Positions 33,083 through 58,800 of a stretch of 64,000 nt of DNA are shown piece by piece. Where the stretch lies: contig CAMJXE010000001.1 of assembly GCA_946409645.1 (NCBI GenBank), positions 27,710 to 91,709 on the forward strand. The letters run 5' to 3'. The translations under genes were made by a program, and so were the position numbers. The DNA comes from an uncultured Bacteroidales bacterium. Its GTDB lineage: Bacteria > Bacteroidota > Bacteroidia > Bacteroidales > WCHB1-69. A model generated the notes under the pieces. It made no database searches. It was not told where the DNA came from and was given only the letters and a program-made list of their open reading frames with translations. Position 1 is the first letter of the stretch; the number at the start of each line of letters is the position of its first letter.

Positions 33083-36000
33083 TCACCGTTTCACAAACTT
33101 TTTTGTCACCGCACCCTTATCCGTGTTGATACGCATCAGATAAGTACCGGAAGAGAGCTTCGACACGTGGACCCGTTTCGGATCTTCAATCGCCTCTGAA
33201 CGCAAGACCAATCTGCCATAGATATCGTAAATTTCTATGAACGAGATATTTATATCGCTTTCTGCACGTACATCAAGGTGATGTGTTGCGGGATTGGGGA
33301 ATATTGATATCGCATGTTCAAGCAAATAGTGAGCAACACTCACACTATCAATAATCTGAGTGGTATCCACAATGGAAGTGTCTATTAGTGTGCAGAATGT
33401 GAGCGTAATCCAGTCGCTGAAGTCTTCCTCATCGCAACGGGTGCGAACGTACAATGTATATACGGTGCCGCTGTCAAGCTCCGTAAATGTATGTGACATA
33501 GTGTCTTGTAAAGTCAGGACAAGCGATTCGTCCAACGTATCCCCTTCCGCCAACAACGTTATATCCCATTCGTGATGAAAAGCCAATATATCCGTAATGC
33601 TAAACGACATTTCCGTATAGGAGACAGAGTCAATGGCAATTGCGGCAGGCGGATTGCATCCAAATGGAACTATGCAGATGTTGTCGAACGCTCCTGCCGG
33701 ATTGTTCCCCAAAGAACCGTCATTTCTCCAAAGAATATACAATCGCACAACACTGGTGGTGGCATTAAATGTGTCGCTATAGGTAGTCCATTGGTCTCGT
33801 TGATAAAGTATCGTGTCTATCTGCACAGCGCCATCAGGGATTACAACGTAATTGGATCCCACATTCGGAGTTGCAACAGGTCCAATGAAAACCTTCGCAT
33901 AATCATACACCGTATTATTATAAATTTCACCTATACCCCTGAAATCAAAAGTAATCTGATACGGATTTTGTTCCGGATCTATATGGAAGTCGCGGTATGC
34001 CCAAAGCGTGGAGGGGGAATTGAATGTATAAGCATTCGTCAATCCACCATCATTACTGACATAAAGGGAGTGTCCTTCGCTTTGTGTAGCTGCCGTATCA
34101 ACAACCCATTGGTTCACAGAGCCATAACTAACATATTGCCAACTATTGACTTCCACAGGATCCTCAAAATCACAATAATATGGAATATGGGCCAACTGGT
34201 GCTGCGTTTGGAATTCTCTCATCTGCCAAAGCCCTGATTGTCCGTCGGCATAATTAGCACGCACGCGGACTAAATAGTCCGTAACGGGCTGAAGATTAGT
34301 AATATTGCACATCGTATCATTAACTGTCACAACAGCCATGACGGAATCTGTCAACATCGCATACTCAACGGTATAGGAAGCAGGAGTGAGCGTGTCGGCC
34401 ATATTCCATGTAACAAGGGCGGAGATATCCGTTGGTACGACCTGCATCATCGGCGGTTGCATATCCTCTGTAGATAAGCACACGTTATCGATAGCGGCTG
34501 GTGGATTCGTCCCTCCAGAATTGTCATTACGCCACAGAAAATAGATCCTCTGAAAACCAGTATGCGTGGAATCAAAGGTGTATTGGTAATGTGTCCAACC
34601 ATCCTTCAAACACAATTTGGAAGCCAACTTCAAAGCACCTGAGGGAGTCGAGTTTCCAGACGGTAGAGTCGTCGGGCCGACAAATGCGTCCACATAGTCA
34701 TAATTATACTCACCCATTCCCTTGAAATCGAACGAGAAGTAATAGGTTGAATGTCCTGGGGTGACAAAAATATCCGTATAAGCCCAACAGTTCGCAGTTA
34801 CGGAAGGGTTATAGCTATTGGTCTGGCCATTGTCAGAGGAAACATAAAGAGTCCCGTTAGGCATACATTCGGCATGACGACCGACAAACCATCGCTGACT
34901 CGACACATTGGAACTCATTTGCCAAGAACTCACACTCTCAGGCGTATCAAAATCGCAAACATAGAGAATGTTACCATTGGTATAAAATGATGATTCCTCG
35001 CTCCATTGGCTATATTGTACGTCGCAATTCTGTTTTACTTTCCAATAATAGAAAACATTGCTGAGCAGATTTTGGACAGTCAAGAAAGTGTCGGAAACGG
35101 TCACGTATGTGTACGCCGTGTCGTTTTGCGGACGGTAGGCCACCGTATAGTTCGTACCCTGACCGCCCCTGCGCAAAGTCCAAGAGAGTGTGGCACTACT
35201 GTCCGATGCGGCAGACCACAGTTCAACAGGTTCCCGGCAAGGATTGGCAGCAATCTCGAAATTGTCGAATGCAGCGGGTGGTTGCGTAACCGAGTAAGTG
35301 TTGTTGGTCCACATCACGTAAAGCCTTTGTACGCCACTATGAGCAGCATCGATATAAAAATGATAATGTTGCCATGATTCCTGGTTGTACAAACTTGCGC
35401 CCAGCTGTTCCGAACCCTCTGGCGTGAAGGTTTCAAACGGAGTGGCAGGTGTGCCCAAGAAGACCTTGGCGTAGTGGCTGCTACTACCTTTGCCTTTGAA
35501 ATCGAAGGAAAGATCGTACTCGTCGTTGCCGGGAGGGAAATATATGTCGCGATATGCCCAAATCTGAGACACCGAACCGTTGGAATAGTGATTCGTAGCA
35601 CTGTCATCAGTGACATATAATGCAGAATCGCCAGACAGATGCACTCCATCCCCTATCATCCATTCATTAGGGCCACTGAGGCAAACGAACGACCAAGAGG
35701 TATTCTCGCTTGCATCTTCAAAGCCACATTCGTACGGAAGAGTAGCACACATCGGCTGAAGGGTGGTGAAGCGGGCGCCGTTACTCCATAAACTGTGGTC
35801 AGTGTCGGAGCAGTTTGCCCGAACCATCCAGTAATAGTAGCTGTCGGGCAGCAAGCCTGTAATTTGCAAAAAAGTATCAGCACTTGTAACTTCAATGAAG
35901 GCACTGTCGTTTAATAACTTGTACGCCACGGTATAGCTCATCGGCAGTGCATTGGCATTGCCCGGGTTCCAAGATAACGTGACAGAGGTGTCTGTTGTGG

Positions 36001-39000
36001 AATGCGCGACAAGATTCACCGGTATGGCGCAATCCGAAACCTGAACGGTGATGTTGTCTATTGCAGCACCCGGATTCATACCGTTATACGAGTCGCAACG
36101 CCACTGAAAATAGATTCGCTGCAATCCCGAGTGGCTTGAATCCACCTCGAAACTGTAGTGTGTCCATGACGGCACCATACAGAGGTCGCCACCAAGTTGT
36201 TCCGCTCCTTCGGGAGCGTTAAGTCCGGAAGGTGTTGCCGGAGGACCAAGATAGACCCGTGCAAAATCCGCGTCGGTTTGTCCCAAACCTCTGTAATCGA
36301 ATGAAATCTGGTATTTGTCAACATCTCCTCCCAAGAAAATGTCACGATAGGCCCATAGACGGGCAGTAGCGTAATAATTGTAGTTTCCGTCTCCAAACGC
36401 AGAACCCACATGCAAGGTGACATTGCCGTTGTCCATCGGTGCCGCGCCGATGGTCAAATAATTCCAATCACTGCCATGGTCATACGTCCAATGGTCAATC
36501 TCGTCTCCATCCTCGAAATCACAAAAATAAGGAAGTAGCGGTTGCGTATGGAAAGGGCATTCGGAGCTCCAGTCACCGGGATCATCGCCACATTGGGTGC
36601 GTACTTTCCAAAAATAGGGAATGTCGGGGATAAGGTTGGTAATCAACACTGAAGTGTCCTGCACATTAACCATCGTGTAAACTGTATCGCCTTGGGGTTT
36701 ATAAGCCAACGTATAAGCTTGGCTTCCGACGGGACTCCAAGTAAAACGGGCGGCATTGGGAGCTGTCATGGTGGTGACCAGCATGGTTGGAGGAGGACAA
36801 GTGGAGACACTCACCTTCAAATTATCCACCGCCCCAGCCTTATCCGATGCATCAGCACGTATTCTATCGAAGAACAAGTGCTGAAAGCCCGAAAAAGAGG
36901 AGTCTATGACGATATAGTGATGTTGCCACTGATTGGAAGATGGGACGGAGCCGACAAGCACTGCATTGGAAAGCGAATCCTCCAACGATTGCAGCTTTAT
37001 CTCAGCTTCTATACCCAAATAATCAAAGGAGATGAGATATTCGTCAGCACCAGGTACAAAGTAAACGTCACGATATACGCTTATGGGATCTTCGTTAGAA
37101 TACATCGAATTGCAAGTGTTCGTGACACCGTCGTCATGCGAAACATAGAGCGAATAGGATCCGCCAAAAGCGACTGCATCACCAATAATCCAGCCATCAT
37201 TGTTAAAAGAGACAGAGGCCTGATGCCAACCGCCCCAGTCGGCATCGTTTTCAAAATCGGTAAAATAAGGCGTAATCGCAGCCGTAAAGAACACCACTTC
37301 CTTGCTCCAGGCACTCAGCGTGCCATCTGCTGCCACAGCCCGCACTTTCCAGTGATAACGGGTGGCCGACATCAACGAAGCAGCCTGCCATACAGTGTCG
37401 GTCAACGAAACGATGGTATAAGCGGTATCTGCATCCTCTCGATAAGCCAGCTGATAGGAAGCAGGTGCTTGGCGGTTACCTGAGGTCCAGCTCAGCAAGG
37501 CGGCATTATGGGTGACATTTGAGGAAACCAAATCATACGGCCGTCCGAACGCGACTGCAGTGAACGTTATATCATCAATAGCACAGGAGCCCTTCGCTAA
37601 ATTATAGTTGTCTTTCGTCCACTCGAAAACGAGCCGTTGTACACCAACGTGCGTCCGATTTAACGCAATGCTGACATGATGCCACAAAGTGTCCGTAAAA
37701 CGAATGGATTCTACCAGACTACCGTTAGAAGGAACGGAAAAACCGGGCGATGCGGGAGATACTACATACACTGAAATATCTGTTTGGTTCGTTGTGTCAA
37801 AGGTTTTGAAATCGAACTCCAGCATATATTCGTCGTATGTCGGGTCGAAAAAGAAATCCCGATAGAGATAAGCCTCTGCATAGTTGGGATTGTTGGTCTG
37901 ATAGGTCGCTCCGTTATCTTTGGAAATATAACTGGAATACTGACCGTTATGTTGAACGGCGCTTCCAATGCACCATTTGTGCTGCGAGGCTTCGTAGTAG
38001 TTAGCCCATGCGGCGTTTTCCGACGATTCTTCAAAACCGCAGGTGTATGGCATCGTGGCGAGCGTTTGGAAAGTATTGAAAGTCTGTTCAGTGCTCCACC
38101 CGCTATTTTCCCCATCGGAGCAGTTGGTTCGCACCTTCCACGAATAAGTGGTCAGCGGTTGCAAACCGGTCAAAGTGACGGTTGTGTCTGAAGTCACTAT
38201 TTCCGTGTATGCGGAATCTGATGCGGATTTATAAGCGACCGTGTAGGACTCCGGGCTTCCGAGTTCACACGCCCGCCACGTGAGTTGTGCCGTAGTATCA
38301 GATGGACTATCCGACAGATGCAACGGATGCGCACAACCCGTACCTGTGATGGAAATGTCATCAATGGCAATGGCCGGATAATATCCTGAATTAATGTTGT
38401 GATTCTGCCAGAAAAAGTAGATGCGCCGCACACCGGCAAAGGTGCTGTCCAACGTGTATTCGTAATGTTTCCAAGATGGAGAATAGCCACTGCTCGTGTG
38501 GTGGATTTTATCCCCTATCTGCACCAAACTGTCCATTGGCATACTGTCGGAAGGGGAAATTGGCGTTCCAATATACACTATGGCGTATGCATTGTTCTCA
38601 TCCCCACGCACTTTGGCATCAAAAGAGAATTCATAACCAGCATATTGCGGGTCAAAATAGACATCGCGATAGGTCCAAAGTGCTGATTCGGATGTGTAAA
38701 CATAGCTGTTGTCGGAGCCGTTGGCCTTTGTGGTGACATACAGAGAAGTGTTGGCGCTGTGATACGTGTTGTGGCCTAAGTACCAACGGTTTTTGTTGTT
38801 TCCCGAAATGACCGGCACATTCCACGCCAAGTTTTCGACCGCATCCTCAAAATCGCAATAATAAGGAAGCGGATGCACCCACTGGAGTTCCGTCTTGAAC
38901 GTAGCTACACTGCTCCAATCCGTTGAAACAGAATCGTTATAGAGCGTTTTCACCCGCCAGTAGTAATCGGTATAAATAGACAAACCCGTGAGTGTCACTG

Positions 39001-40549
39001 AATTAGTGTCATAAACGGTAAATTCCGTATAGTTATAATCCCCAGCCGTCTTATAGCCCACGATGTAGCCTATCGGGGCATCTACACAATCGTGCTGCCA
39101 AGAAAGCGTGGCGGAGGAATCGGTGATATTCGTGGTAGTCAGCGTGTTAGGCGGCAGACAAGGAACTCCCGTGATGGAGATATCATCAATGGAAATGCCT
39201 GGATTCCCGTTATCGTATGAACTTTTGTACCAACGGAATGAAAGACGATAAACGCCAGGTGTATCGACACTAAACGTGTAGTTGTGATCCATCCAAACAG
39301 AGTCATACGGCAAGACGGAACCAGAACACAGTTGTTTGAGCGTAGTATTATTGCTCGGCCCGAAATACGGCGTCGTACGCCCATATCCCCGATGTTTGAA
39401 GGAAATCACATATTGGGGATATAGTGTATCTAAATAGAATTCCCTATATGACCATATTTGATTAAACGGGCTAACATTACTACTGCAAATATTCGTAACA
39501 CCATCATCGTATGTATTATACAAAGAATGATTTCCTGAATATGAAACGTATGATCCAATAAACCATTTGCCATAATACAAAGGATAATTGTTCGGCAAGT
39601 TCCATAAAGCATTTTCCACCGAGTCCTCGAAATCGCAGTAATACGGCACATTAGCATACGTTCGCAACGTGGTGAACGTTCTCTCCAAACTCCAGTCACT
39701 TGATGCTGAATCACCACACAAAGCTTTCACTTTCCAATAATAAGTCGTGTTTGGAATCAAATTCGACAACGTGCAGAATGTATCCGAGACCATTACCTCT
39801 GTATAGGATGTGTCCGCTGACGTGCGATAGGCCACCTGATACTGATTCGCCATGCCTAAAACGCCTGGCACCCATGACAAATTTGCCGTGGAGGTTGTGA
39901 TACCGAAAGAAGCTAACATCTCCGGAAATGAACAGTCGTTATCCTGATACGTAAAAGTCAACTTGGGCAGAATATTCCCTTCGTATGGGACATTACTGTT
40001 ATTACCGACCACATTAATGGATGATATTAACAGGGGCATTTGACTTGACGATTGTATTTGCCCATAGAAATGTTCACTTCCGTAACTTCCTCCCGCCGGC
40101 TTATAAACCTCAACCAACAGGTTTCCGCCCGTATATAAGAAAGCCGTGTCCAGCGGAATACGCAAACACCCCTCCTCGAAAAAGGCGGACATCTGCCCTG
40201 ACCACACTTCTACTGTCGGGGAACCCGAAAAACCGCCCAACAGATTGTTGTCATTCGTAACACCCAATCTAACCGTCTGAATCCCATTCCATTGCAATGT
40301 CGGCATAGTTACAAAATACCATGTCAGCGTAGTAATATAATGTCCCTGCAATTCGGTAAGCATGGAAGCCGGATAGATCGACTGCGAATGTTGTGATTGC
40401 GACCAATGATACACCGACAGCGGGTAATACACCGACTCCGAAGTGCCATCGGCCACTGTTATCTGCTGCGCTTCAGCATTGATACCGCACAACATTCCTG
40501 ATATAATCCAAATCAAAAAGAATTTCCTTTTCATATTATCATATTTCAT
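33083..40549 (-). CDS. 2488-aa T9SS cargo: N-terminal domain, ~8 [FN3 + ~180-aa MAM/choice-of-anchor-J-like] modules, T9SS C-terminal sorting domain
   Basis: Signal peptide. Nine FN3-like units (..LSW..Y.V.Y..T.Y.WKV...C....WS....F.T) alternate with PYYCDFE..W..G....SLYVS.D.G.TN......WAYRD..F.F.G.G...VY.G....W.HY.....G.QR.YF.W..D....NP.AIDN units. The tail FPNPATHHLDV..IEIYDIYGRLV..GTYLMRI matches TIGR04183. Confidence 0.85.
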   Translation of the reverse strand: MKYDNMKRKFFLIWIISGMLCGINAEAQQITVADGTSESVYYPLSVYHWSQSQHSQSIYPASMLTELQGHYITTLTWYFVTMPTLQWNGIQTVRLGVTNDNNLLGGFSGSPTVEVWSGQMSAFFEEGCLRIPLDTAFLYTGGNLLVEVYKPAGGSYGSEHFYGQIQSSSQMPLLISSINVVGNNSNVPYEGNILPKLTFTYQDNDCSFPEMLASFGITTSTANLSWVPGVLGMANQYQVAYRTSADTSYTEVMVSDTFCTLSNLIPNTTYYWKVKALCGDSASSDWSLERTFTTLRTYANVPYYCDFEDSVENALWNLPNNYPLYYGKWFIGSYVSYSGNHSLYNTYDDGVTNICSSNVSPFNQIWSYREFYLDTLYPQYVISFKHRGYGRTTPYFGPSNNTTLKQLCSGSVLPYDSVWMDHNYTFSVDTPGVYRLSFRWYKSSYDNGNPGISIDDISITGVPCLPPNTLTTTNITDSSATLSWQHDCVDAPIGYIVGYKTAGDYNYTEFTVYDTNSVTLTGLSIYTDYYWRVKTLYNDSVSTDWSSVATFKTELQWVHPLPYYCDFEDAVENLAWNVPVISGNNKNRWYLGHNTYHSANTSLYVTTKANGSDNSYVYTSESALWTYRDVYFDPQYAGYEFSFDAKVRGDENNAYAIVYIGTPISPSDSMPMDSLVQIGDKIHHTSSGYSPSWKHYEYTLDSTFAGVRRIYFFWQNHNINSGYYPAIAIDDISITGTGCAHPLHLSDSPSDTTAQLTWRACELGSPESYTVAYKSASDSAYTEIVTSDTTVTLTGLQPLTTYSWKVRTNCSDGENSGWSTEQTFNTFQTLATMPYTCGFEESSENAAWANYYEASQHKWCIGSAVQHNGQYSSYISKDNGATYQTNNPNYAEAYLYRDFFFDPTYDEYMLEFDFKTFDTTNQTDISVYVVSPASPGFSVPSNGSLVESIRFTDTLWHHVSIALNRTHVGVQRLVFEWTKDNYNLAKGSCAIDDITFTAVAFGRPYDLVSSNVTHNAALLSWTSGNRQAPASYQLAYREDADTAYTIVSLTDTVWQAASLMSATRYHWKVRAVAADGTLSAWSKEVVFFTAAITPYFTDFENDADWGGWHQASVSFNNDGWIIGDAVAFGGSYSLYVSHDDGVTNTCNSMYSNEDPISVYRDVYFVPGADEYLISFDYLGIEAEIKLQSLEDSLSNAVLVGSVPSSNQWQHHYIVIDSSFSGFQHLFFDRIRADASDKAGAVDNLKVSVSTCPPPTMLVTTMTAPNAARFTWSPVGSQAYTLAYKPQGDTVYTMVNVQDTSVLITNLIPDIPYFWKVRTQCGDDPGDWSSECPFHTQPLLPYFCDFEDGDEIDHWTYDHGSDWNYLTIGAAPMDNGNVTLHVGSAFGDGNYNYYATARLWAYRDIFLGGDVDKYQISFDYRGLGQTDADFARVYLGPPATPSGLNAPEGAEQLGGDLCMVPSWTHYSFEVDSSHSGLQRIYFQWRCDSYNGMNPGAAIDNITVQVSDCAIPVNLVAHSTTDTSVTLSWNPGNANALPMSYTVAYKLLNDSAFIEVTSADTFLQITGLLPDSYYYWMVRANCSDTDHSLWSNGARFTTLQPMCATLPYECGFEDASENTSWSFVCLSGPNEWMIGDGVHLSGDSALYVTDDSATNHYSNGSVSQIWAYRDIYFPPGNDEYDLSFDFKGKGSSSHYAKVFLGTPATPFETFTPEGSEQLGASLYNQESWQHYHFYIDAAHSGVQRLYVMWTNNTYSVTQPPAAFDNFEIAANPCREPVELWSAASDSSATLSWTLRRGGQGTNYTVAYRPQNDTAYTYVTVSDTFLTVQNLLSNVFYYWKVKQNCDVQYSQWSEESSFYTNGNILYVCDFDTPESVSSWQMSSNVSSQRWFVGRHAECMPNGTLYVSSDNGQTNSYNPSVTANCWAYTDIFVTPGHSTYYFSFDFKGMGEYNYDYVDAFVGPTTLPSGNSTPSGALKLASKLCLKDGWTHYQYTFDSTHTGFQRIYFLWRNDNSGGTNPPAAIDNVCLSTEDMQPPMMQVVPTDISALVTWNMADTLTPASYTVEYAMLTDSVMAVVTVNDTMCNITNLQPVTDYLVRVRANYADGQSGLWQMREFQTQHQLAHIPYYCDFEDPVEVNSWQYVSYGSVNQWVVDTAATQSEGHSLYVSNDGGLTNAYTFNSPSTLWAYRDFHIDPEQNPYQITFDFRGIGEIYNNTVYDYAKVFIGPVATPNVGSNYVVIPDGAVQIDTILYQRDQWTTYSDTFNATTSVVRLYILWRNDGSLGNNPAGAFDNICIVPFGCNPPAAIAIDSVSYTEMSFSITDILAFHHEWDITLLAEGDTLDESLVLTLQDTMSHTFTELDSGTVYTLYVRTRCDEEDFSDWITLTFCTLIDTSIVDTTQIIDSVSVAHYLLEHAISIFPNPATHHLDVRAESDINISFIEIYDIYGRLVLRSEAIEDPKRVHVSKLSSGTYLMRINTDKGAVTKKFVKR

Positions 40550-43500: not shown

Positions 43501-43838
43501 AACACTTCAATGCTCACCTTGTCCTCGTTGGGCATCATGAGCGTGAAATCCGTCACCCCGTCGAAAGGGTTGGGCGTATTCTGCAACAGGGTCAGCTTCT
43601 CCACCCGTTCATAGTTCTCCAGCCCCACCCCCGACAAAACGAGAATGGTGTCCGGATAAAACAAGGTATCCGACCATTCTTGCGTAATATCCTCAATGAC
43701 AGCATGATGTAACTGCACGTAACTACCATGACTGTCTTGTCCCGTAAGGCGAATGCTTGGTTGAGCCAAAGTGGGAGCTTGGAGCAGCGTCAACAGCACT
43801 CCCACTGTTGTGATGATGTTTAAGACTTGCTTGATCAT
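40572..43838 (-). CDS. FISUMP-domain surface protein, paralog 1 (1088 aa)
   Basis: Signal peptide, N-proximal T9SS-CTD/FlgD-Ig-like segment, P-domain-like RLKMEHERIGDLWIQLVCPNEQSATI, and four ~90-aa G.CW...P.PT..D...YY.RAYATN..G..YG units. The C-terminal FISUMP domain reads GSQCWMKSNL..YGYLYNWNA..CPDGWHVPDDAEW..SVRCVRN. Confidence 0.8.
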   Translation of the reverse strand: MIKQVLNIITTVGVLLTLLQAPTLAQPSIRLTGQDSHGSYVQLHHAVIEDITQEWSDTLFYPDTILVLSGVGLENYERVEKLTLLQNTPNPFDGVTDFTLMMPNEDKVSIEVFDMAGRKVTGKSQRLSAGAHTFRVWLNTPQQYLLMVRTTREKVSIKMVNNGSGGSSHIAYNGEYALSYTLKSSRSGGYEDGDLLRVTGFRQVNELFLPSETMEITTIPDETVVLTFATLGELSGVRHFVDTNTVLIPDGVECDGDCFGTMNIHIYGYDPDAVLQSIEQLTYVRLKMEHERIGDLWIQLVCPNEQSATIMTKSWSGQSSQYNGCASLIPLLYWGWPGGNNEPQYAHFGCYDIHNSNPSCDPTVNPMGECWNYCWSMDTTHGQTYACGGSRVWESCNHFTTYNPSFNGSTNNYVAATDVTTLSNMYKPDESFSYLVGCPLNGLWQIRVLDALNADNGYVEEAEIAIDVPIACPIDSPYVASGAVTSVTRNSVVCSGEVLSEGLATVTERGFCWDTLPNPTLAASNMAVGSGMGTFTATLTGLTAGTPYYCRAYATNAYATVYGETVTFTTDANVAPSLMTVQVSSITDTSAIVGGLIVNDGGVPILERGICWGLTDVPTLTDSYVTTSTASDSFSCVLTNLTSASHYYARAYATNAVGTGYGDVVDFTTEIGLPAVALDSITNIGSSYATCQGALLTDGGDATAVVGLCWSANPTPTLTDNHVEWNGTVGAFQQIIGGIHDTLCYVRPYATNAMGTVYGNILSFAPDTIPTSVHLSLVHLDHNYATMRVTIVCDSSAAISNRGLCLDTLPQPDLSNRNFPTTSTDNVFDILVDSLERASTYYLRGYCVSNGTLLFSDDYLLLTVAEDGQPCIGTPTLTDYEGHVYNTVQVGSQCWMKSNLYTTHFPDGTPIALGGSSESIPYYYHHSIADSLFPKYGYLYNWNALTNNSPVNNVDAQGICPDGWHVPDDAEWLVLRNYTGHYYGCGDDTTSVAKALAGVSGWNISTENCVPGATPSNNNLTGFSAFPSGGHYDVDFQVGQSAFFWSRSLNPGVYSACHVFKISYNYRVLSQSSNHYQWAYSVRCVRNY

Positions 43839-43864
43839 AATTTGATTCGATTAATTATCGATGG

Positions 43865-43872
43865 CAAAGATA
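43865..43872 (-). promoter_or_regulatory. -7 box TATCTTTG for FISUMP paralog 1
   Basis: Reverse complement of CAAAGATA; start codon at 43838. Confidence 0.5.
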
Positions 43873-43887
43873 CAACAAATTCGCCTA

Positions 43888-44050
43888 TAAATATTCCGTC
43901 ATTTCCAAAATATGTTCCGTCTCAACCAAAAATATGACGAGTGGGGTATTATTTGAGGCTTAACGGATAAAAACAGCGTTGAAAATCAAGATGTTGTCGA
44001 AAACCGCCAGGTTATGGATGTGAGACGGAATAAAGCGGGGTTTTGAGAGG
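43888..44050 (-). promoter_or_regulatory. conserved upstream element, copy 1 (~165 bp)
   Basis: About 85-90 % identical by eye to 50809..50972. TTCCGTC occurs at 43894 and 43915 (21-bp phase), with an inverted GACGGAA at 44024. Confidence 0.6.
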
Positions 44051-44083
44051 GAAATAAGAAAAAAGACGGCATTTTCGGGTTCG

Positions 44084-45298
44084 TCACACTGACGGTAACC
44101 CTTCCTTGAGAAACTTTCTTAAGGACAAATGAGTGATTCCATTTTCGTCTCTTGTATTCAACAATGGTGTTGCACTGATGACGAATTTCGGGTGATTGTC
44201 GCGAATCTTTTCCAAAGGGCCGAATTCCCGCTTGCGGGTGGACTCTTCGGCTATAATATAGCTCGCCTGAATGTAAACGGTCTTGCCGGGCTTGGTGCAG
44301 ACGAAATCCACCTCCCCTGCATTCAGCACGCCCACCTTCACCTCGTAGCCGAGAAAGCGCAGATGCTTGTAAATGGCATTCTCGATTACTTTCTCAATAT
44401 AAGAATCCATGCCACCCTCCGCTTTGAGATTGCGAAGCCCCAAGTCGTCCCAATAGATCTTTTCGTTGGACTCGAAAATCTTCTTCCCGTGTATGTCGTA
44501 ACGGGGCACGATGTCTAACAGGTAAGCTTCGGCATAGAAGCCCCGATAGAGCAGGACAAGGTTGGCCGACACATTCTCATGTTGCGACTTCATGTATTTG
44601 GCAATGCTGTTGGCCGAGGTGAGTTTGCCGGTGGTATCAGCATAGAAGGCGATGAGGTTGTTTAAGAAAGGGATGTTGCGGATGTCGTGCCGCTCGATGA
44701 TATCCTTGAGCATGATCGTATTGAAGACACTGGTGAGATAGGCCAAAACCTGCTCGTCACTGTCAAGCCCCACTTTCCTGAGACCAGGAAGACCGCCGTA
44801 GGTCAGATAAATCATGAGGCTTTCGTCGCTGTCGGGAAGGTTGTGGAATTCCAGAAACTCGGAATAGGTGAGCGGATGGATGCGCACCTCCACATGTCGT
44901 CCGGAAATCAAGGTGGCCAACTCGCCGGAAAGCATCTTGGAATTGCTGCCGGTAATGATGACATCCGTGTTATCCTCTGAGTACCAGTTGCAAATGCTCT
45001 CTTCAAAGTGCTCAATTTCCTGCACCTCGTCAATGAGGATAAAGTTGTGCTTTCCCGGGATGAAGCGTGCTTCAATCCAGTTATCCAAGTCGTCTTTGGT
45101 CTTGATGTCTTTAAACGCCTTCTTTTCCTTGTCTATAAAAATGATATTGACATCCGTCTCATCCATGTGACGCTGCACAAAGTCTTTGAGAACATAGCTT
45201 TTGCCAACGCGGCGCGAGCCAACCAAGGCGATGATGTTGCCTTTGCCTATCCACGAATCCACAATATCCGCATAGTGCCTCCTTGTAAGTACTTCCAT
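44084..45298 (-). CDS. AAA ATPase with DUF4143-type C-terminal domain (COG1373-like)
   Basis: Walker A GSRRVGKS, Walker B FILIDEVQ, and C-terminal GEVDFVCTKPGKTVYIQASY. Confidence 0.8.
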   Translation of the reverse strand: MEVLTRRHYADIVDSWIGKGNIIALVGSRRVGKSYVLKDFVQRHMDETDVNIIFIDKEKKAFKDIKTKDDLDNWIEARFIPGKHNFILIDEVQEIEHFEESICNWYSEDNTDVIITGSNSKMLSGELATLISGRHVEVRIHPLTYSEFLEFHNLPDSDESLMIYLTYGGLPGLRKVGLDSDEQVLAYLTSVFNTIMLKDIIERHDIRNIPFLNNLIAFYADTTGKLTSANSIAKYMKSQHENVSANLVLLYRGFYAEAYLLDIVPRYDIHGKKIFESNEKIYWDDLGLRNLKAEGGMDSYIEKVIENAIYKHLRFLGYEVKVGVLNAGEVDFVCTKPGKTVYIQASYIIAEESTRKREFGPLEKIRDNHPKFVISATPLLNTRDENGITHLSLRKFLKEGLPSV

Positions 45299-45818: not shown

Positions 45819-46015
45819 TGTTGTTATTGATTTTGATGATTATTGCTTTTTCGGTTTGTCATGCGGTCATAACAACGGTCACAGACACCGTCTTATTATT
45901 TCATTAGATATATTTTCCTCAACTATCTTGATTCTCAGCAACTTGCGCCGCGTGCCAGCGGCACGAAATCTCAATAACCCCATACGAAACGAACGGAGTG
46001 AGTGCCGTGTGGGGT

Positions 46016-46573
46016 TTAAGGAAAAATATCTTCGGTTTTTTCATACGATTGTACTAAATGTTCATTGGAGAACAGTAGAAAACGATGGTGAGAAACACTT
46101 TGTAGTTGGTCTTTCGGAATCAACTCCGACAGAAATCGCTTCATGTATGAATTACAATAGCTGGTTTTATAGTAAAATTCGTTAACACTCAGCATCGGAC
46201 GAGACAGAAATTCATTCTGCAGGAATGCATCTGTGTAATACTCGGTTAAGACATATAAGTTAAGATTCACGCTGTCACAAAAATCTTGAATGGTTTTCAA
46301 AGGAATGCAAACGCTGCTCGAACAATGAGGTGACCATAGGTATAGTAGCGTGTTTCCGCTTCTTGCCAACAAGACAGACAGTTGATTTGCGGTGATCGCC
46401 ATGATTTTTCCGTTATTTTGATCAGGGATTTCATCCACTGAACTCACAAAGCAGATCTTCCCTTGCTCGTCAGCCGGCAATCGTTTGTAACCGCTATTGA
46501 AGCCAGGCGTATGAATTATGGCACAAGCATGGAACAGCACAATTAGAGATAGAAATACTAAAACCCTTTTCAT
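46016..46573 (-). CDS. lipoprotein, possibly degenerate thioredoxin-like fold
   Basis: Signal MKRVLVFLSLIVLFHAC. LLYLWSPHCSSSVC sits where a Trx WCxxC motif would. The start is trimmed to avoid overlap with the upstream gene. Confidence 0.45.
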   Translation of the reverse strand: MKRVLVFLSLIVLFHACAIIHTPGFNSGYKRLPADEQGKICFVSSVDEIPDQNNGKIMAITANQLSVLLARSGNTLLYLWSPHCSSSVCIPLKTIQDFCDSVNLNLYVLTEYYTDAFLQNEFLSRPMLSVNEFYYKTSYCNSYMKRFLSELIPKDQLQSVSHHRFLLFSNEHLVQSYEKTEDIFP

Positions 46574-46601
46574 AGCAAGAGGAGATCTGTCGTGGTAGGT
46601 C

Positions 46602-47396
46602 TTATTTCGATGTTTTCTTCGCCTTCTTTTTGAAACAGTGCACGTAAGCGAGCTCAAAACCGATATGGTTGTGACGGTAGCTGTAGGCGCCGTATGCGTT
46701 GTCCACTAGCAGGAATGTGTATTCCCCATGGAACGTGTCCTTAAACGAATAGTTCGCCAGAATGCTGAAGCGAATGAGATCATTATAGGGCAGTTTGTAG
46801 TAAAAACCAAGGTTGAGTTGCAAATCTGCGCGTACTTTGTCGCCATCCAACTCTTCTAAATAGTGCTTATAAGGAGATGTCGGATCATGGCCACCACTAA
46901 AAACATGCCAACTGAAGAGGTTTTCTCCGATGATTTTGGACAGAATACTTTCCCTGACATTGATCAGGTTAACGCCCAGTGCCCCATAGAAGAAAAAATT
47001 GCTTTGTAAAATGGGATAATGAAACTCTGCTTTGATTGGAATTTGAAACGCATTAAAAGCAATGCGCGCGTTTGCAGGTCCGATGGGCATATATCCATCA
47101 CCGTCCCACCGCCACAGTTTCCATTGCGCCTCTGTGCCGTAATCTAAACCGATGGAGACTCCGAAATATTTTGCGAAATGGTAGGAGAACTCCAGTCCGG
47201 CCTGCCACCCTAAGGTAGGGTCGGACAATGGTGCGGGCCAGTTTTGTCCGATGGCCACAACGGTCATTCTTTGGGCCAAGTTTCCCTCTCCGGTGACGCC
47301 GATGTGAAACCCGTCGGGAAACAAAGAACGGTTTTCCTGTCCGTAGGAAACGGAAAGGAGAATCGCAAACAATACGACGAAAGGAATTCTTTTCAT
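46602..47396 (-). CDS. outer-membrane beta-barrel protein (porin-family like)
   Basis: Signal MKRIPFVVLFAILLSVSYGQ, alternating hydrophobic beta-strand pattern, and a ..ELAYVHCF end followed by a KKKAKKTSK tail. Confidence 0.6.
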   Translation of the reverse strand: MKRIPFVVLFAILLSVSYGQENRSLFPDGFHIGVTGEGNLAQRMTVVAIGQNWPAPLSDPTLGWQAGLEFSYHFAKYFGVSIGLDYGTEAQWKLWRWDGDGYMPIGPANARIAFNAFQIPIKAEFHYPILQSNFFFYGALGVNLINVRESILSKIIGENLFSWHVFSGGHDPTSPYKHYLEELDGDKVRADLQLNLGFYYKLPYNDLIRFSILANYSFKDTFHGEYTFLLVDNAYGAYSYRHNHIGFELAYVHCFKKKAKKTSK

Positions 47397-50659: not shown

Positions 50660-50784
50660 GCTACCCATTTTATACTATTTTTGATAAACCGTTCATTTAT
50701 ATAAGTATGACGCAAAAAGTGCAAAGGTTACACCTTGCCGAATTTTTTGTTTGCGGCAAGAATGCCGCAGCTTCTTTTCCGCTG

Positions 50785-50792
50785 CAAAAATA
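50785..50792 (-). promoter_or_regulatory. -7 box TATTTTTG for FISUMP paralog 2
   Basis: Reverse complement of CAAAAATA. It has the same ~30-bp spacing to the proximal TTCCGTC repeat as in copy 1. Confidence 0.45.
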
Positions 50793-50808: not shown

Positions 50809-50972
50809 AAAATATTCCGTCATTCCAAAAATATGTTCCGTCTCAACCAAAAAATATGATGGACAGGTTGAATTTTGAGGATTAACGGATGAAAATAGTG
50901 TTGAAAATCAATATGTTGTCGAAAACCGCCAGGTTGTGGATGTGAGACGGAATAAAGCGGGAAATTGAGACG
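50809..50972 (-). promoter_or_regulatory. conserved upstream element, copy 2
   Basis: TTCCGTC at 50815 and 50836 (21-bp phase), inverted GACGGAA at 50946, and an extra GAGACGG at 50967. It lies between the divergent FISUMP-2 and LytTR promoters. Confidence 0.6.
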
Positions 50973-51012
50973 GTTTGAGGGTCTAAATGGGGCTTTGAAC
51001 GGAAATAATGTG

Positions 51013-51020
51013 TATCTTTG
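51013..51020 (+). promoter_or_regulatory. -7 box TATCTTTG for the LytTR gene
   Basis: Exact TAnnTTTG; ATG at 51046. Confidence 0.5.
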
Positions 51021-51045: not shown

Positions 51046-52101
51046 ATGAAAAAACAAACGCGCACCATTATCATCGTCCTGCTGAACGTTCTGTTCTGCG
51101 CTTACATGCTTTGGTTTTCCACCAATAACTCCTTCCTCCGACCGTATGCAGGAAGCAAGACCCGGGAATTCTTTGCGGGACTAATCCTGCTGATTACCTT
51201 GTATGCCAACTATTTCCTTCTCTATCCGAAACTCCACAAAAAGCACCCTGTGGTTTATTGGGTGGTATTGGTCAGCCTTTGTATCATAGCCGCAGCAGTT
51301 GACTTTGCAATCGCCCATCGCTTTATGATGTATTGCAATAGCGCGGTAATTGAAAAATATGGTGCTTTTAGTTTCTTCTCCCATCATTACAGACTTATAG
51401 TAATTCGAAATGTGACCTTAAACGCTTTTCCGTTTATCTTCCGTGAGCGGCAGGAACTCCAGAAAGCGCTGGACAAGGAGGTGCAGATTGTCTATCAGGA
51501 TGCCCGGCTGTTGGATGTGTCCGACAAGGACCACAATGCGCGCCTCATTCCCAGGGACAACATCTACTATTGTCAGCAGGACGGGAACTACACCCGCATC
51601 TACGTGACGCAGGACGACCTATATTACTCTCGCTACGGCTCCATGAAGTATCTTGAGCAACTGTTTGGAACAGAGGAGTTTGTACGCGTTTCCAACACGT
51701 TGCTAATCCCTTACCGATATATCCATTCCTGCAACGGTACTGAAGTGTTCATGAAACGGCTACCTTGGCAGAAAGAACCGCTCTCCTTCGCCATCGAGCC
51801 CAAGTACCTTGACCAGGCTCCCGGACAGATCGCCCTCTACCTCCTCAACTCCAAGGGGCAGGAGACCATGAAACCTCCCAAACAAAACCGTAAGAGACGG
51901 AAACCTGTCAAACCCTCGCAGGAAAAGACAGACACTGTGCTTCAGTACATCAAGGAGCATGCGGGCAGTCAGACCAAGGAAATTGCCGAAAACACCCAAT
52001 TCTCCCCGACCACGGTGGAGCGCTGCTTGGCAGAACTCCGCAAGCAGGAACTCGTTAAGTTTAAAGGGAGCAAGAAAACTGGCGGATATCACATTGTCTG
52101 A
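51046..52101 (+). CDS. membrane-anchored LytTR-family DNA-binding protein with extra C-terminal winged-helix
   Basis: Four N-terminal TM helices. LytTR core LIPRDNIYYCQQDGNYTRIYV..YSRYGSMKYLEQL..FVRVSNTLLIP. Basic linker, then TKEIAENTQFSPTTVERCLAELRKQELV. Confidence 0.8.
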   Translation: MKKQTRTIIIVLLNVLFCAYMLWFSTNNSFLRPYAGSKTREFFAGLILLITLYANYFLLYPKLHKKHPVVYWVVLVSLCIIAAAVDFAIAHRFMMYCNSAVIEKYGAFSFFSHHYRLIVIRNVTLNAFPFIFRERQELQKALDKEVQIVYQDARLLDVSDKDHNARLIPRDNIYYCQQDGNYTRIYVTQDDLYYSRYGSMKYLEQLFGTEEFVRVSNTLLIPYRYIHSCNGTEVFMKRLPWQKEPLSFAIEPKYLDQAPGQIALYLLNSKGQETMKPPKQNRKRRKPVKPSQEKTDTVLQYIKEHAGSQTKEIAENTQFSPTTVERCLAELRKQELVKFKGSKKTGGYHIV

Positions 52102-55853: not shown

Positions 55854-58800
55854 CTATTGAGACAACATTAACTGTAACTGAATACCAGTTTCAAAATTCA
55901 TATTGTCGTATTGGTTCATTACCTTTGGCTTGTTGATGGCCTGGTCATAATAAAACTTCAGACCCACCATACGGCTAAACTGGTAATCGGCAGAAATATT
56001 GATAGTCATATTCAAGGAGCCAGAAGTCACCTGTTCATTGTCCTCAGTTATACGACGAAGCATCGTCTGGTTGTCTTTCAAGCCGAAACCAGCTGAAACA
56101 TTCAAGTCGCTGACAAACTGACGTTTAACGCCCGCAAACACCAATCCGATTTTAATATCCTTAAAGCGATAACCTGCGGAAACAGTAACTTCCTTGCTGG
56201 TCGTTTCCGTAATCTGTGTGTTGGCGAAGCTGAGGGATATATTTCGGGATTGCTTGTACTCCACTTTCATCAACATGCTGTTTTTCAATGTCATATCAAA
56301 ACCAATCAGCGGGCCAAATTGTTCAACCATCGACATTTGGCTAAGCTCATTGGTGGCGATGAAATCGCCTAATGTATTGTATGCGTTGGGGTACCCATTC
56401 GCATCTGCGGAGAAGGCAATATTGGTGGAATAATTGCCGACATTATAGCTACAAGTGTAATTGTGAATCAAAGAGAAGCTTTGGAATATTTTGCTAAATG
56501 CTTTGATTTTTGTCAAACCGTTGTAATTCAATCGCCAGTTGGGCAATGGAATTTTCAGGAACGGGGAAAAGATATCGCCTTTTTGTGCGTCCTTGCTCAA
56601 GTAAGTGGTCATGAATGCACCCATCAACACATCTTGAGAAATGGCACTGTAACCGACTGGATAACCTGTCTCAGGATCGACATCACCTGTATAATTGGGG
56701 TTGTTTTCAGCGTAGCGTTCCGCTAATTGAGCACGCACTTCGCGGAACTGCTGGAATAGTTCATCATGATTCTTGAAAAATGTTCCCAAGCCACAATAGG
56801 TCATGCTGAAGGAACCGGAGCGTTGGGGGGTGTAATGAGACACATTCCCCATTTCGTCAACATGGAAATATTCGGAGAAGTTCTCAGTGAAGTTGCGGTT
56901 AGCTGAAACGTCGATTCTGAAATCGCGGAACGGTTCCACTGTGGCGCGGAAATTTATCACTTGGTTCTTAGTACGTTGGTAAGCCGTATTCAACAAGGAA
57001 TCTGTAGTTAACCAACCATTACGAGCACCAATCGCTTGAATGTCGGGCTGGCCGCCAAACATAAATAGGAATCCTGGACCATTGGCCTCCTTACCATGCC
57101 CAAGCAAAGAAGCTGAATACATGTAGCCTGGCAGCACGGTTCCGCGACCTTGCGAATAGGTGGCAGAAATGTTGCGCACTGACATGAGCAGACGTACCGT
57201 TCCGTCTAAAATCATCCTACCCACTTGAGGCTTTTCTCGCAACGAATCGTTCTTGTCGTGCTTCTTACCTTTTTTACCTTTCTGTACTTCATTTTCCACA
57301 TCATCCTTAGCGTTTTTCCCTTTATCAGCCTTGTCTTTGTTGTTTAGGCTAATACCTTGGTTGACTTTCTTAAGATAAGGAACTGAGTTGTATAGAGTTA
57401 CGAAATTCAAAGAGGCGTTGCCCTGAATATTCTGTGAGTTTTGAATGGTGTTACCCAAATATGAGATTGAGAGTGCCGATGCCGTGTACATGTACATGGA
57501 AGAGTAACGAACATTCGCAGTCACAAATTTGAATATAGGTATCTTATTGATAGGCACTTGATAAGTGGCGTTGAAATTTTGACGATAGTCGGTAGTACGA
57601 CCGCCTTTTCCCAAACAGCGCCAAACGGAATCTTTTTTCGCTCGCGTGTCAATTCGCCCGTCGGGTTCATCGATTCGTGCAGAAGCGTCCGCTCTGAACT
57701 CCAGTTTCAAACTCTGGAAAATATCCCAGTTGATGGCATAGTTGCGGGTCCAATCGAAAGATTTCACATAGTTCGTATCAATAATGATATTTCCTTTGCT
57801 CTTGGGACGATATTTGAACTCTTGCAAATCACGATGCAACGTAGTGCGAATGGTGATATTCTTAGGCAAGGGTGTGATATTGAAGTCACGAATTAATTGC
57901 AGCCACTTGTTCTTAGTCCATTTTGCACTGGCGAAAGGCTTGTAATTCTTGGGATTAGTGCTGAAAGTATATCCAATTTCACCATTATGGATATATTCGT
58001 TATTCATCTCCAAGTCTTCGTCGCGTTGCACCAACTGGGAGTAGGAGTACGACAAGTCAAAGTTCTCAATATCCCAGAGATGCATTTTGGTATTTCCCTT
58101 GGAGAAGTCACGTTCCTTGCGGACATTCATCAGGTTAACATTCTGGCGTTGTATGACCTTATTGGTCAGGAATCGCAGTGAGTCACGTTGCGAAGCAGGA
58201 AGATCCGCCAACTCATCTTTCATTTTCACGTCTGGGTTAAGCGGGTTGTATTCCGGTTGTACAACCGCCAAAGAATAGTCGTAGTGTACTGGAATTTTTA
58301 TATTCCAATGTTCTGGGAATAAGAGCTTTCCACCGTCAATATTAGTAGCCACATCGAAATTGACGTTCGTTTCATGAGAACGTTCTGTGATAGATTGTTC
58401 CAAGGAGCCGAATCCTGGGGTGGAGTACATACCCGAAATGGTTAGGTCACCCACATCGGCCAAGGTAGTACGTGCTCGCAGTAATGCGGCCACGCCTTGT
58501 CGGTCATCAAAGCCACATAGTCGCAGCTCATTGATCCACATTTCAACCGATTTAGGTTTCATATCATCATAATAGCCACTTACTTCAGCGTCACCCGCTC
58601 GTTTCTTGGGATTTCGGACACCAATCATAATGGTAGTCACTTCGCCCAAATTCGGGTTACCCACGACCGTGAAGCGAGGATCAGAGTTGGAGAGTCGAAT
58701 TCGCGAATAAGGAACCAGAATATTGGGGTGATAACCATTTCTAATCGCTCTGTTACGTTCCATTTTCAGGGCTACCAAAGAATCCAAGGTGATATAAACC

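Follow-up and report, generated by a model that had tools for sequence, protein, structure and literature searches.

A candidate LytTR-type promoter-operator module ahead of FISUMP and type IX secretion cargo genes in uncultured Bacteroidales

LytTR regulators recognize 9-bp direct repeats that are separated by a spacer of 12 (11–13) bp and lie just upstream of the promoter; the length, spacing and position of the repeats are conserved, their sequence poorly so (PMC6193735). Promoters of the sigma-A type in Bacteroidetes carry a −7 box that occupies positions −12 to −5 (PMC9723704; PMC4747536). The subject of the present analysis is a non-coding element that occurs twice in a 64,000-nt stretch of DNA from an uncultured Bacteroidales bacterium (assembly GCA_946409645.1, contig CAMJXE010000001.1, positions 27,710–91,709; hereafter the window), each time upstream of a gene for a FISUMP surface protein. 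A preliminary description of the window, made from the letters alone, had proposed that the element is an operator through which a neighboring LytTR protein controls both surface-protein operons, one of which includes a giant cargo of the type IX secretion system (T9SS). With a probability of roughly two in three, each copy is a promoter-operator, that is a cis-regulatory promoter module, and the two copies are paralogous; this reading is based on comparison with other loci, designated L001 to L029.

Two copies of a non-coding element

The two copies (44051..43889 and 50973..50810) are 85.98% identical over 164 nt in blastn, and 144 of the 167 columns of their global alignment are identical (86.2%), as the preliminary description had estimated by eye (85%–90%). 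Its count of six mismatches in an 81-nt core is likewise reproduced, the best 81-column stretch of the alignment, which starts at 43952, having exactly this number. The adjacent coding regions were said to be far more diverged, and they are: the FISUMP-1 and FISUMP-2 proteins share 39% identity (441/1123) and the best-matching coding DNA segment between the downstream genes reaches 70.6% over 395 nt (blastn). Between the element and the ATG, the DNA of the two copies is unrelated except for the −7 box. Identity of 86% over 165 bp reflects a fairly recent common ancestry of the copies; most of their differences sit in a variable middle section, yet the length of this section is kept. A conserved small open reading frame (ORF) was considered and rejected, in agreement with the earlier view: the only common 10-codon frame, MLSKTARLWM on the plus strand of both window copies, is without a start in L013 and in one copy of L008 (L008_b) and is frameshifted in one copy of L011 (L011_b).

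The heptamer TTCCGTC (GACGGAA on the gene strand) is found twice in each copy with a period of 21 bp (43894–43900/43915–43921 and 50815–50821/50836–50842), as previously described. The pattern GACGGAA-N14-GACGGAA has two exact matches in the 64 kb; with up to two mismatches allowed, 0.42 are expected. GAGACGGAA occurs seven times in the window against 0.58 expected, and four of the seven lie inside the two module copies, the only ones detected in the window with a profile of the proximal module. Some details of the earlier picture need revision. The 21-bp spacing stands; the 1-nt compensating indels thought to preserve it can be read equally well as two substitutions. The heptamer is part of a longer and more degenerate unit, tGAGAnGGAa followed by CAYATTT, with the degenerate core GAnGGAw (here GACGGAA). 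An inverted GACGGAA had been placed ~110 bp upstream; the distance holds (108–109 bp, centre to centre, from the distal direct repeat), but a second inverted box follows 23 bp past the first. Instead of three boxes there are thus four to five, an inverted distal pair and a direct proximal pair with a third phased unit.

Towards the cargo gene, the order of the module is two inverted distal boxes, the variable middle of ~95 bp, a CGTCATATTT unit, two direct boxes and the −7 box, and the whole conserved non-coding stretch extends over ~190 bp per copy (Table 1). The direct boxes, TGAGACGGAA-CATATTT and GACGGAATA, are exactly 21 bp apart and are followed after 21–22 nt by a TAnnTTTG −7 box, ~28 bp centre to centre from the proximal box, close to the ~30 bp given before. 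With respect to the predicted transcription start site (TSS), the direct boxes lie at about −37 and −58, the TCAYATTT unit at about −75 and the inverted pair at about −167 and −190. The −33 element of this sigma-A type Bacteroidetes promoter is weak or absent. TAnnTTTG itself is 5.3-fold enriched in the intergenic DNA of the window, mostly 15–70 nt ahead of start codons.

An alignment of 14 non-redundant module copies shows which parts are invariant: CTTTATTCCGTCTCA (distal box 1), outside which the second box lies at 23 bp; within the middle, TTGATTTTCA; then TCATATTT and, after it, TGAGACGGAACATATTTT (box 2); ATGACGGAA (box 3); and GTAWYTTTG (−7 box). In most copies, the conserved part extends to include the −7 box. 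The 16 close copies share the same spacings: 107–109 bp between box 1 and box 2, 21 bp between box 2 and box 3, and, in this count, 20–21 nt from box 3 to the −7 box.

A further TAnnTTTG sequence, the internal TATTTTTG of copy 1 (43927–43934), was considered as a promoter and rejected. According to the preliminary description, transcription from this site would make the element part of a 5′ untranslated region and hence an RNA element. The site is not a −7 box in L013, L016, L022, L023, L025 and L029, and the sequences found in its place include TATTTCCG, TATTTTGG and TATTTTCG; its left half, (G/A)TCA(T/C)ATTT, is kept in nearly all lineages, whereas the TTTG of the −7 box form is not, which indicates a repeat unit rather than a promoter. 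The −7 box downstream of the direct boxes is, in contrast, invariant in position.

Geometry of the module and its linkage to a LytTR gene

Relatives of the element were sought by exact-word scans with two invariant 20-mers. True copies were found in uncultured rumen and gut Bacteroidales metagenome-assembled genomes (MAGs) and in metagenome contigs (reindeer, yak, RUG): L008, L011–L016, L018, L020 and L021, three loci from the genome scan and seven from the metagenome scan, all of the same locus type. These copies are 74%–99% identical, and there are usually two per locus. Hits L009, L010, L017 and L019 were discarded as chance matches of 20–24 nt in unrelated, partly GC-rich DNA, and viral contigs gave no module match. 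Upstream of homologues of the FISUMP N terminus from other taxa (L001–L007) the element is absent; L001–L003 show only a weak promoter-proximal resemblance, with a spacing of 18 bp rather than 21 bp. The absence at L001–L007 indicates that the element tracks the regulator locus and not the FISUMP family.

The regulator in question is encoded at 51046..52101, where the preliminary description had placed a LytTR gene. Its product scores 29.6 bits against Pfam LytTR (PF04397; cut-off 22.6), and an HTH_24 domain is also found. The AlphaFold2 model (pLDDT 81.5), read together with hydropathy, has membrane helices at residues 2–152, a beta domain at 155–249 and a winged helix at 292–350. No significant match was obtained with the regulator profile against PDB sequences, and the structural matches come from the fold search: the top Foldseek PDB matches of the beta domain are the LytTR domains of AgrA, ComE (4cbv) and 3d6w, with TM scores of 0.70–0.79 (AgrA 4xqj/4xqn/3bs1, TM 0.74–0.79, root-mean-square deviation 2.7–3.1). 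Copy 2 lies between the FISUMP-2 promoter and the divergent promoter of this gene, again as described before, with −7 boxes at 50785..50792 (−) and 51013..51020 (+).

A database search returned 218 homologues of the regulator, and the contigs of eight, at 46%–80% identity, were taken (L022–L029); every homologue with a contig that was read derives from a gut or rumen Bacteroidales assembly. In L022–L029, the regulator gene is always divergent from a cluster of secreted or T9SS-cargo genes (S41 peptidases, fn3 or SprB proteins with Por_Secre_tail, S8 peptidase operons), and the module sits in the intergenic region. Counting every locus with an intact 5′ end of the gene, the module is present in the divergent intergenic region of the regulator in 12 of 12, over regulator identities of 46%–100%. 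A second module copy lies deeper in the cluster in the window, L011, L012, L022, L025 and L029, and also in L008 and L016, whose contigs end before the regulator gene.

With a profile built on the proximal ~90 bp (E ≤ 1e-8), 27 module copies were recovered from 19 related loci and the window. The −7 box is kept in 26 of the 27. In 25 of these 26, box 2 and box 3 are 21 bp apart, the odd one out being explained by an artefact of register, and 21–22 nt separate box 3 from the −7 box. The geometry of the module thus holds across regulator identities of 46%–100%. At depth, only the proximal ~90 bp can be aligned and the interior is unalignable in diverged lineages; beyond this proximal part, deep conservation is limited to the boxes and the distances between them. 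Inverted distal boxes nevertheless recur in diverged lineages, 93–118 and 126–152 nt upstream of box 2. They match the local box variant better than shuffled sequences in the window (≤1/3000), one copy of L029 (2/3000), L028 (13/3000), L024 (31/3000) and L027 (84/3000), and also in L013.

The invariance of this geometry bears on two other explanations. Perfect 10-bp inverted repeats (TTCCGTCTCA/TGAGACGGAA) about 100 bp apart, and an internal −7-like box that in the window copies reads outward to the surface-protein genes, would suit a phase-variable invertible promoter, in which the repeats are recombinase sites around a segment of ~97 bp containing TATTTTTG; invertible promoters do drive surface structures in Bacteroidales (PMC4747536). 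However, the interior has the same orientation in all 27 copies from independent assemblies, the internal TAnnTTTG is not kept in L013, L016, L022, L023, L025 and L029 while the −7 box beyond the repeats always holds its place, and no recombinase gene or domain was seen in the window region or at any related locus. The repeats, moreover, also form direct pairs, for which an inversion site has no need. This is the least probable of the explanations considered. Only slightly better placed, and still very improbable, is the view that the element has no function of its own and is either what a segmental duplication left behind, its copies kept alike by gene conversion, or a small mobile sequence that ends in inverted repeats, akin to a miniature inverted-repeat transposable element (MITE). 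Mosaic copies exist (L011_b joins a left part of copy 2 type to a right part of copy 1 type), L018 looks like L016 after recombination between two copies, and terminal inverted boxes are present. Yet copies 1 and 2 cluster by type across genomes, which indicates an old duplication, after which boxes and spacings stayed invariant while the interior diverged. Even at 46% regulator identity, when the rest of the DNA can no longer be aligned, the geometry persists. Dispersal over many unrelated loci, which the preliminary description had named as the mark of a MITE, is not seen: the window holds two copies, every true match of the genome and metagenome scans is at this locus type and none is in viral contigs.

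The sequence of the boxes differs between lineages. It is GAGACGG, GAGATGG or GTGAGGG, and in the clearest lineages (that of the window, L024, L027 and L029) it is nearly uniform, the sequence being largely the same in all boxes of a genome. The variant is TGAGACGG in the window lineage and of the TGAGATGG type in L027; TGTGAGGG/TGTGAAGG is found in all four boxes of L024 and in almost all of the eight that L029 has in its two modules (one is TATGAGGG), inverted distal boxes included. That direct and inverted boxes, and both paralogous modules, appear to vary together fits recognition by one protein better than it fits an RNA helix, which needs no shared sequence between two direct boxes or two paralogous elements.

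The protein need not be the LytTR domain. The module could be a promoter-operator as described and be read by the winged helix-turn-helix (wHTH) domain of the same protein, by an unlinked regulator or by an alternative sigma factor, so that the linkage to the LytTR gene would reflect co-inheritance of the locus only. The departure of the box from known LytTR consensus sequences, the MarR-like wHTH domain of the regulator and the inverted orientation of distal versus proximal boxes, which is more typical of dimeric HTH proteins, are in favor of such a reader. It is nonetheless unlikely, because exact 21-bp phasing of direct repeats is a hallmark of LytTR sites and is kept down to 46% regulator identity, the module stands beside the regulator gene in all 12 loci, and lineage-specific box variants are expected of a dedicated local regulator rather than a global one.

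The middle section raises the question of RNA. A structured RNA on the plus strand, antisense to the cargo genes and composed of a hairpin around TTGAAAATCAA and two short helices, would explain the conservation of the ~100-bp interior. RNAalifold gives eight double-change pairs and 93.8% paired cells counted on its structure; seven pairs are changed on both sides compared with 2.6 ± 1.1 in shuffles (none of 500 reaches this value), slid controls are much lower, and many pairs are G-U, valid on the plus strand only. The structure was, however, picked by RNAalifold on the same alignment, which represents ~5 independent lineages, and the hairpin is broken in L013. In 12 lineages, the middle section has minimum-free-energy z-scores close to zero whichever strand is folded (window copy 1, −0.68; window copy 2, −1.0; L013, +1.24), TAnnTTTG is not conserved in that direction, and the interior cannot be aligned in diverged lineages; the gene-strand fold, for comparison, has no compensatory pairs. 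Taken together, these data make a plus-strand RNA quite improbable. Rfam gave no match at the gathering score for the whole window, nor at E ≤ 1 for 43700–44200. RNA structure on the gene strand was rejected: single-sequence z-scores are only −2.0 to −2.4, RNAalifold finds no compensatory pairs, and the conserved −7 box comes only after the boxes.

Other features of the middle section were noted. The integration host factor (IHF) consensus WATCAANNNNTTR is fitted by AATCAAGATGTTG of copy 1 and AATCAATATGTTG of copy 2 (50906–50918, +), and also in both L029 modules; the middle sections of other lineages contain near matches. Speculatively, the IHF-like site may be a bend site between the box pairs. 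Cytosine homopolymers of 7–10 nt occur between distal and proximal boxes in L024 (~4800), L026 (~3830), L029 (~2260) and L025 (~1650), copy 1 of the window having only CCCC; slippage in such a tract would alter the phasing of the boxes.

Sequence conservation, constant geometry, linkage with the regulator gene, lineage-specific boxes and the LytTR fold together point to an operator of the neighboring LytTR protein. The 21-bp layout that the preliminary description had likened to LytTR sites is found as such, with 9-bp boxes and a 12-bp spacer (GACGGAACA-N12-GACGGAATA, 21 bp start to start), placed relative to the Bacteroidetes promoter in a comparable though not identical way, and the proposal that it serves both surface-protein operons gains support from box layout, locus linkage and lineage-specific boxes. 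The membrane-anchored neighbor would bind the boxes through its LytTR domain and, from the proximal pair, activate the genes behind it, which encode secreted, surface or T9SS-cargo proteins. In the copy adjacent to the regulator, the distal pair and an extra box over the regulator's own core promoter would provide autoregulation. This extra box, GAACGGAAAT, read from the sequence, has counterparts at the matching place in L012, L022, L023, L025, L027 and L029 (the last in its own variant, TGTGAAGGAAT), and its position suggests an autoregulatory site. In the second copy, the distal pair is retained, possibly for a looped higher-order complex. The module would have been duplicated within the gene cluster and kept while the cargo genes behind it were exchanged.

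Several observations weigh against an operator read by the LytTR domain. The close copies stem from closely related MAGs, and much of the conservation over 165 bp is shared ancestry. Individually, the distal boxes are not significant against shuffles in L025, L026 and the second L029 copy, and in L025, L026 and L028 the variable base at the centre of the box shows just a partial correlation from box to box. The proximal box ends 21–22 nt before the −7 box, at about −34, and abuts or overlaps the −33 position instead of lying 4–11 bp upstream of a −35 element, a published rule that does not carry over directly, Bacteroidetes promoters being unlike the −35/−10 promoters of sigma-70. The box is also unlike the published Firmicute LytTR consensus (ACCnCTTAn), a weak criterion given that repeat sequences are poorly conserved between systems. 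The second DNA-binding domain of the regulator, the wHTH, could read some or all of the sites, and the plus-strand hairpin of the middle section shows more double changes than shuffles. Finally, the support for a role in binding or expression is comparative throughout.

Cargo genes and their proposed exchange

The synteny of the locus is a LytTR gene facing, across a module, the cargo genes, followed further on by an AAA_14/DUF4143 ATPase gene, a second module and a further cargo gene. On the same strand after FISUMP-2 come an outer membrane protein (OMP) beta-barrel gene, ORFs of 213 and 116 aa and the AAA_14 ATPase gene; no intrinsic terminator was called by the scan between the ATPase gene and copy 1. 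Downstream of the regulator gene lie a 318-aa ORF without Pfam match, a phosphomannose isomerase gene and a methyltransferase gene. The regulon, as far as it is visible here, is local to the gene cluster.

The cargo behind the module varies: FISUMP proteins of 320–343, 457 or 1088 aa, a 617-aa WG-repeat/TonB_C protein, an OMP, small signal-peptide proteins, SprB or fn3 T9SS cargo, and S8 or S41 peptidase operons. In window copy 1 (~43876–43880), L021 and L015, a cargo-exchange junction lies inside the promoter: ~8 nt past box 3 the similarity to the other copies breaks off, yet an unrelated −7 box stands at the usual distance.

Recombination around the module can be seen in other variants. L018 (2381–2574) resembles L016 (1740–4430) minus the DNA between the module copies, which holds a 163-aa gene and an S41 peptidase gene, and this form suggests recombination between the direct module copies. 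In L014 (3035–3301), a deletion variant, 52 codons are missing from the start of the LytTR gene, which adjoins the upstream region of the ATPase gene; the regulator-proximal module and the intervening cargo genes are gone. The segment 43864–45899, comprising the AAA_14/DUF4143 ATPase gene and copy 1, has 96%–98.5% DNA identity with L011, L012 and L014 (ATPase protein 97.6%–99.8%), whereas the region of the LytTR gene is only 90.7%–92.9% identical to the same loci; the segment was apparently shared more recently.

A second intergenic element, of ~68 bp (CCCCACACGGCACTCACTCCGTTCG...GTGCCGCTGGCACGCGGCG), is present at 45948–46015 in minus orientation, just 3′ of the ORF 46016–46657. It is 93%–98.5% identical, more than the surrounding DNA, 3′ of different genes in L008 (twice), L011, L012, L014 and L022, and could act as a terminator or mark a cassette boundary on the 3′ side. 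The predicted 5′ leader of FISUMP-2 (50669–50784, minus strand, ~110 nt) begins with the hairpin GCGGCATTCTTGCCGC and is conserved with the leaders of 457-aa FISUMP genes in L008, L013 and L023. About 5 kb from the regulator-cargo cluster, the 2445-aa ORF 55854–63191 (−) encodes SprA of the T9SS translocon (PF14349, E = 1e-175); a profile scan found no module ahead of the SprA gene within the window.

An extended form of the promoter-operator reading would unite these features. The LytTR-wHTH regulator would bridge the distal pair (about −167/−190) and the proximal pair (−37/−58) across a spacer of fixed length, with its bend site or hairpin and, in several lineages, a poly-C tract of 7–10 nt, so that the four boxes form a platform for a loop; the module would at the same time be a portable cassette boundary where recombination exchanges T9SS-cargo and surface genes, with its junction ~8 nt past box 3 and with deletions between module copies. 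As a whole this idea is doubtful; if it holds, a single sensory input would allow uncultured rumen Bacteroidales to alter their surface repertoire. The promoter-operator reading ties the regulator family, by sequence comparison, to the expression of T9SS cargo and FISUMP surface proteins in uncultured organisms, and it gives an uncharacterised family of membrane-anchored LytTR-wHTH one-component regulators a concrete candidate operator, geometry and target set. Regulator-promoter pairs with lineage-specific boxes could also serve as orthogonal expression parts in Bacteroidales.

Table 1. Features of the two module copies, the candidate regulator and the first cargo genes in the window
Feature	Position	Strand	Remarks
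Copy 1 −7 box, TATCTTTG	43865..43872	−	27 nt before FISUMP-1 ATG (43838); predicted TSS ~43860
Copy 1 box 3 (proximal), GACGGAA core of AATGACGGAATA	43894..43900	−	about −40 to −34
Copy 1 box 2, TGAGACGGAA then CATATTTT	43915..43924	−	core at about −61 to −55; distance to box 3 exactly 21 bp
Copy 1 unit A, CGTCATATTTTTGG	43926..43939	−	third phased unit, with the CAYATTT half of box 2; contains the internal TATTTTTG
Copy 1 variable middle	43940..44020		near-palindrome TTGAAAATCAA at 43979–43989; IHF-like AATCAAGATGTTG at 43984–43996 (+)
Copy 1 distal box 1, TGAGACGGAA	44021..44030	+	exact inverted copy of box 2; 10/10 match, reached by 1/3000 shuffles
Copy 1 distal box 0, TGAGAGGGAA	44044..44053	+	9/10 match; 23 bp outside box 1 and 129 nt upstream of box 2
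Copy 2 −7 box, TATTTTTG	50785..50792	−	117 nt before FISUMP-2 ATG (50668)
Copy 2 box 3, GACGGAA	50815..50821	−	
Copy 2 box 2, TGAGACGGAA + CATATTTTT	50836..50845	−	21 bp from box 3
Copy 2 unit A, CATCATATTTTTTGG	50847..50861	−	
Copy 2 variable middle	50862..50942		TTGAAAATCAA at 50901–50911
Copy 2 distal box 1, TGAGACGGAA	50943..50952	+	10/10 match, reached by 0/3000 shuffles
Copy 2 distal box 0, TGAGACGGTT	50966..50975	+	
Box-like GAACGGAAAT	50997..51006	+	6 nt upstream of the regulator's −7 box; read from sequence
Regulator gene −7 box, TATCTTTG	51013..51020	+	26 nt before regulator ATG; conserved in all regulator loci read
Candidate regulator, 351 aa	51046..52101	+	four long N-terminal membrane helices, LytTR (~155–249), basic linker, C-terminal winged helix
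FISUMP-1, 1088 aa	40572..43838	−	Pfam Fib_succ_major, E = 3.4e-28; first gene after copy 1
T9SS cargo, 2488 aa (fn3 repeats, Por_Secre_tail)	33083..40549	−	22 bp downstream of FISUMP-1; presumably co-transcribed
FISUMP-2, 1086 aa	47408..50668	−	Fib_succ_major; first gene after copy 2

Comparison with known systems

Like the fin/IVp invertible promoters of Bacteroides (PMC4747536), the module is a short element flanked by inverted repeats, upstream of surface-protein operons and with TAnnTTTG boxes. It differs from them in the lack of orientation variants among the 27 copies, in a conserved promoter outside the repeats, in the absence of a linked recombinase and in its direct pairs with helical phasing.

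Closer parallels are found in the LytTR regulatory systems (LRS) HdrRM and BrsRM of Streptococcus mutans (PMC6193735). There, too, the LytTR protein has no receiver domain and is controlled at the membrane (here it is membrane-anchored), the repeats keep their length, spacing and position with poorly kept sequence, and boxes lie near the regulator's own promoter, suggesting autoregulation. In LRS, the inhibitor is a separate membrane protein encoded in the same operon, whereas in the window the membrane domain is fused to LytTR and wHTH in a single polypeptide of 351 aa. Strict membership in LRS was considered and rejected, as an operon of regulator plus membrane inhibitor is not present (the downstream 318-aa ORF has no Pfam match). 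Furthermore, the best-placed repeats face the divergent cargo promoter and not the regulator's own operon, and the targets of LRS are bacteriocin and competence genes, compared with T9SS and surface proteins in a Bacteroidales host here.

The closest match in layout is with the operators of AgrA (P2/P3) and ComE, which likewise consist of paired 9-bp direct repeats with a 12-bp spacer and a 21-bp period just upstream of the core promoter, and the LytTR structures of AgrA and ComE are superposed by the predicted domain of the window regulator. Unlike AgrA and ComE, this regulator has no receiver domain and carries four N-terminal membrane helices and an additional C-terminal winged helix. The module, for its part, has an unrelated box sequence, a −33/−7 promoter of the Bacteroidetes type with the proximal box abutting −33, and an extra inverted box pair ~110–130 bp upstream. 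No new regulatory principle is involved; the layout is that of a classical LytTR site, set in front of T9SS-cargo and surface-protein genes.

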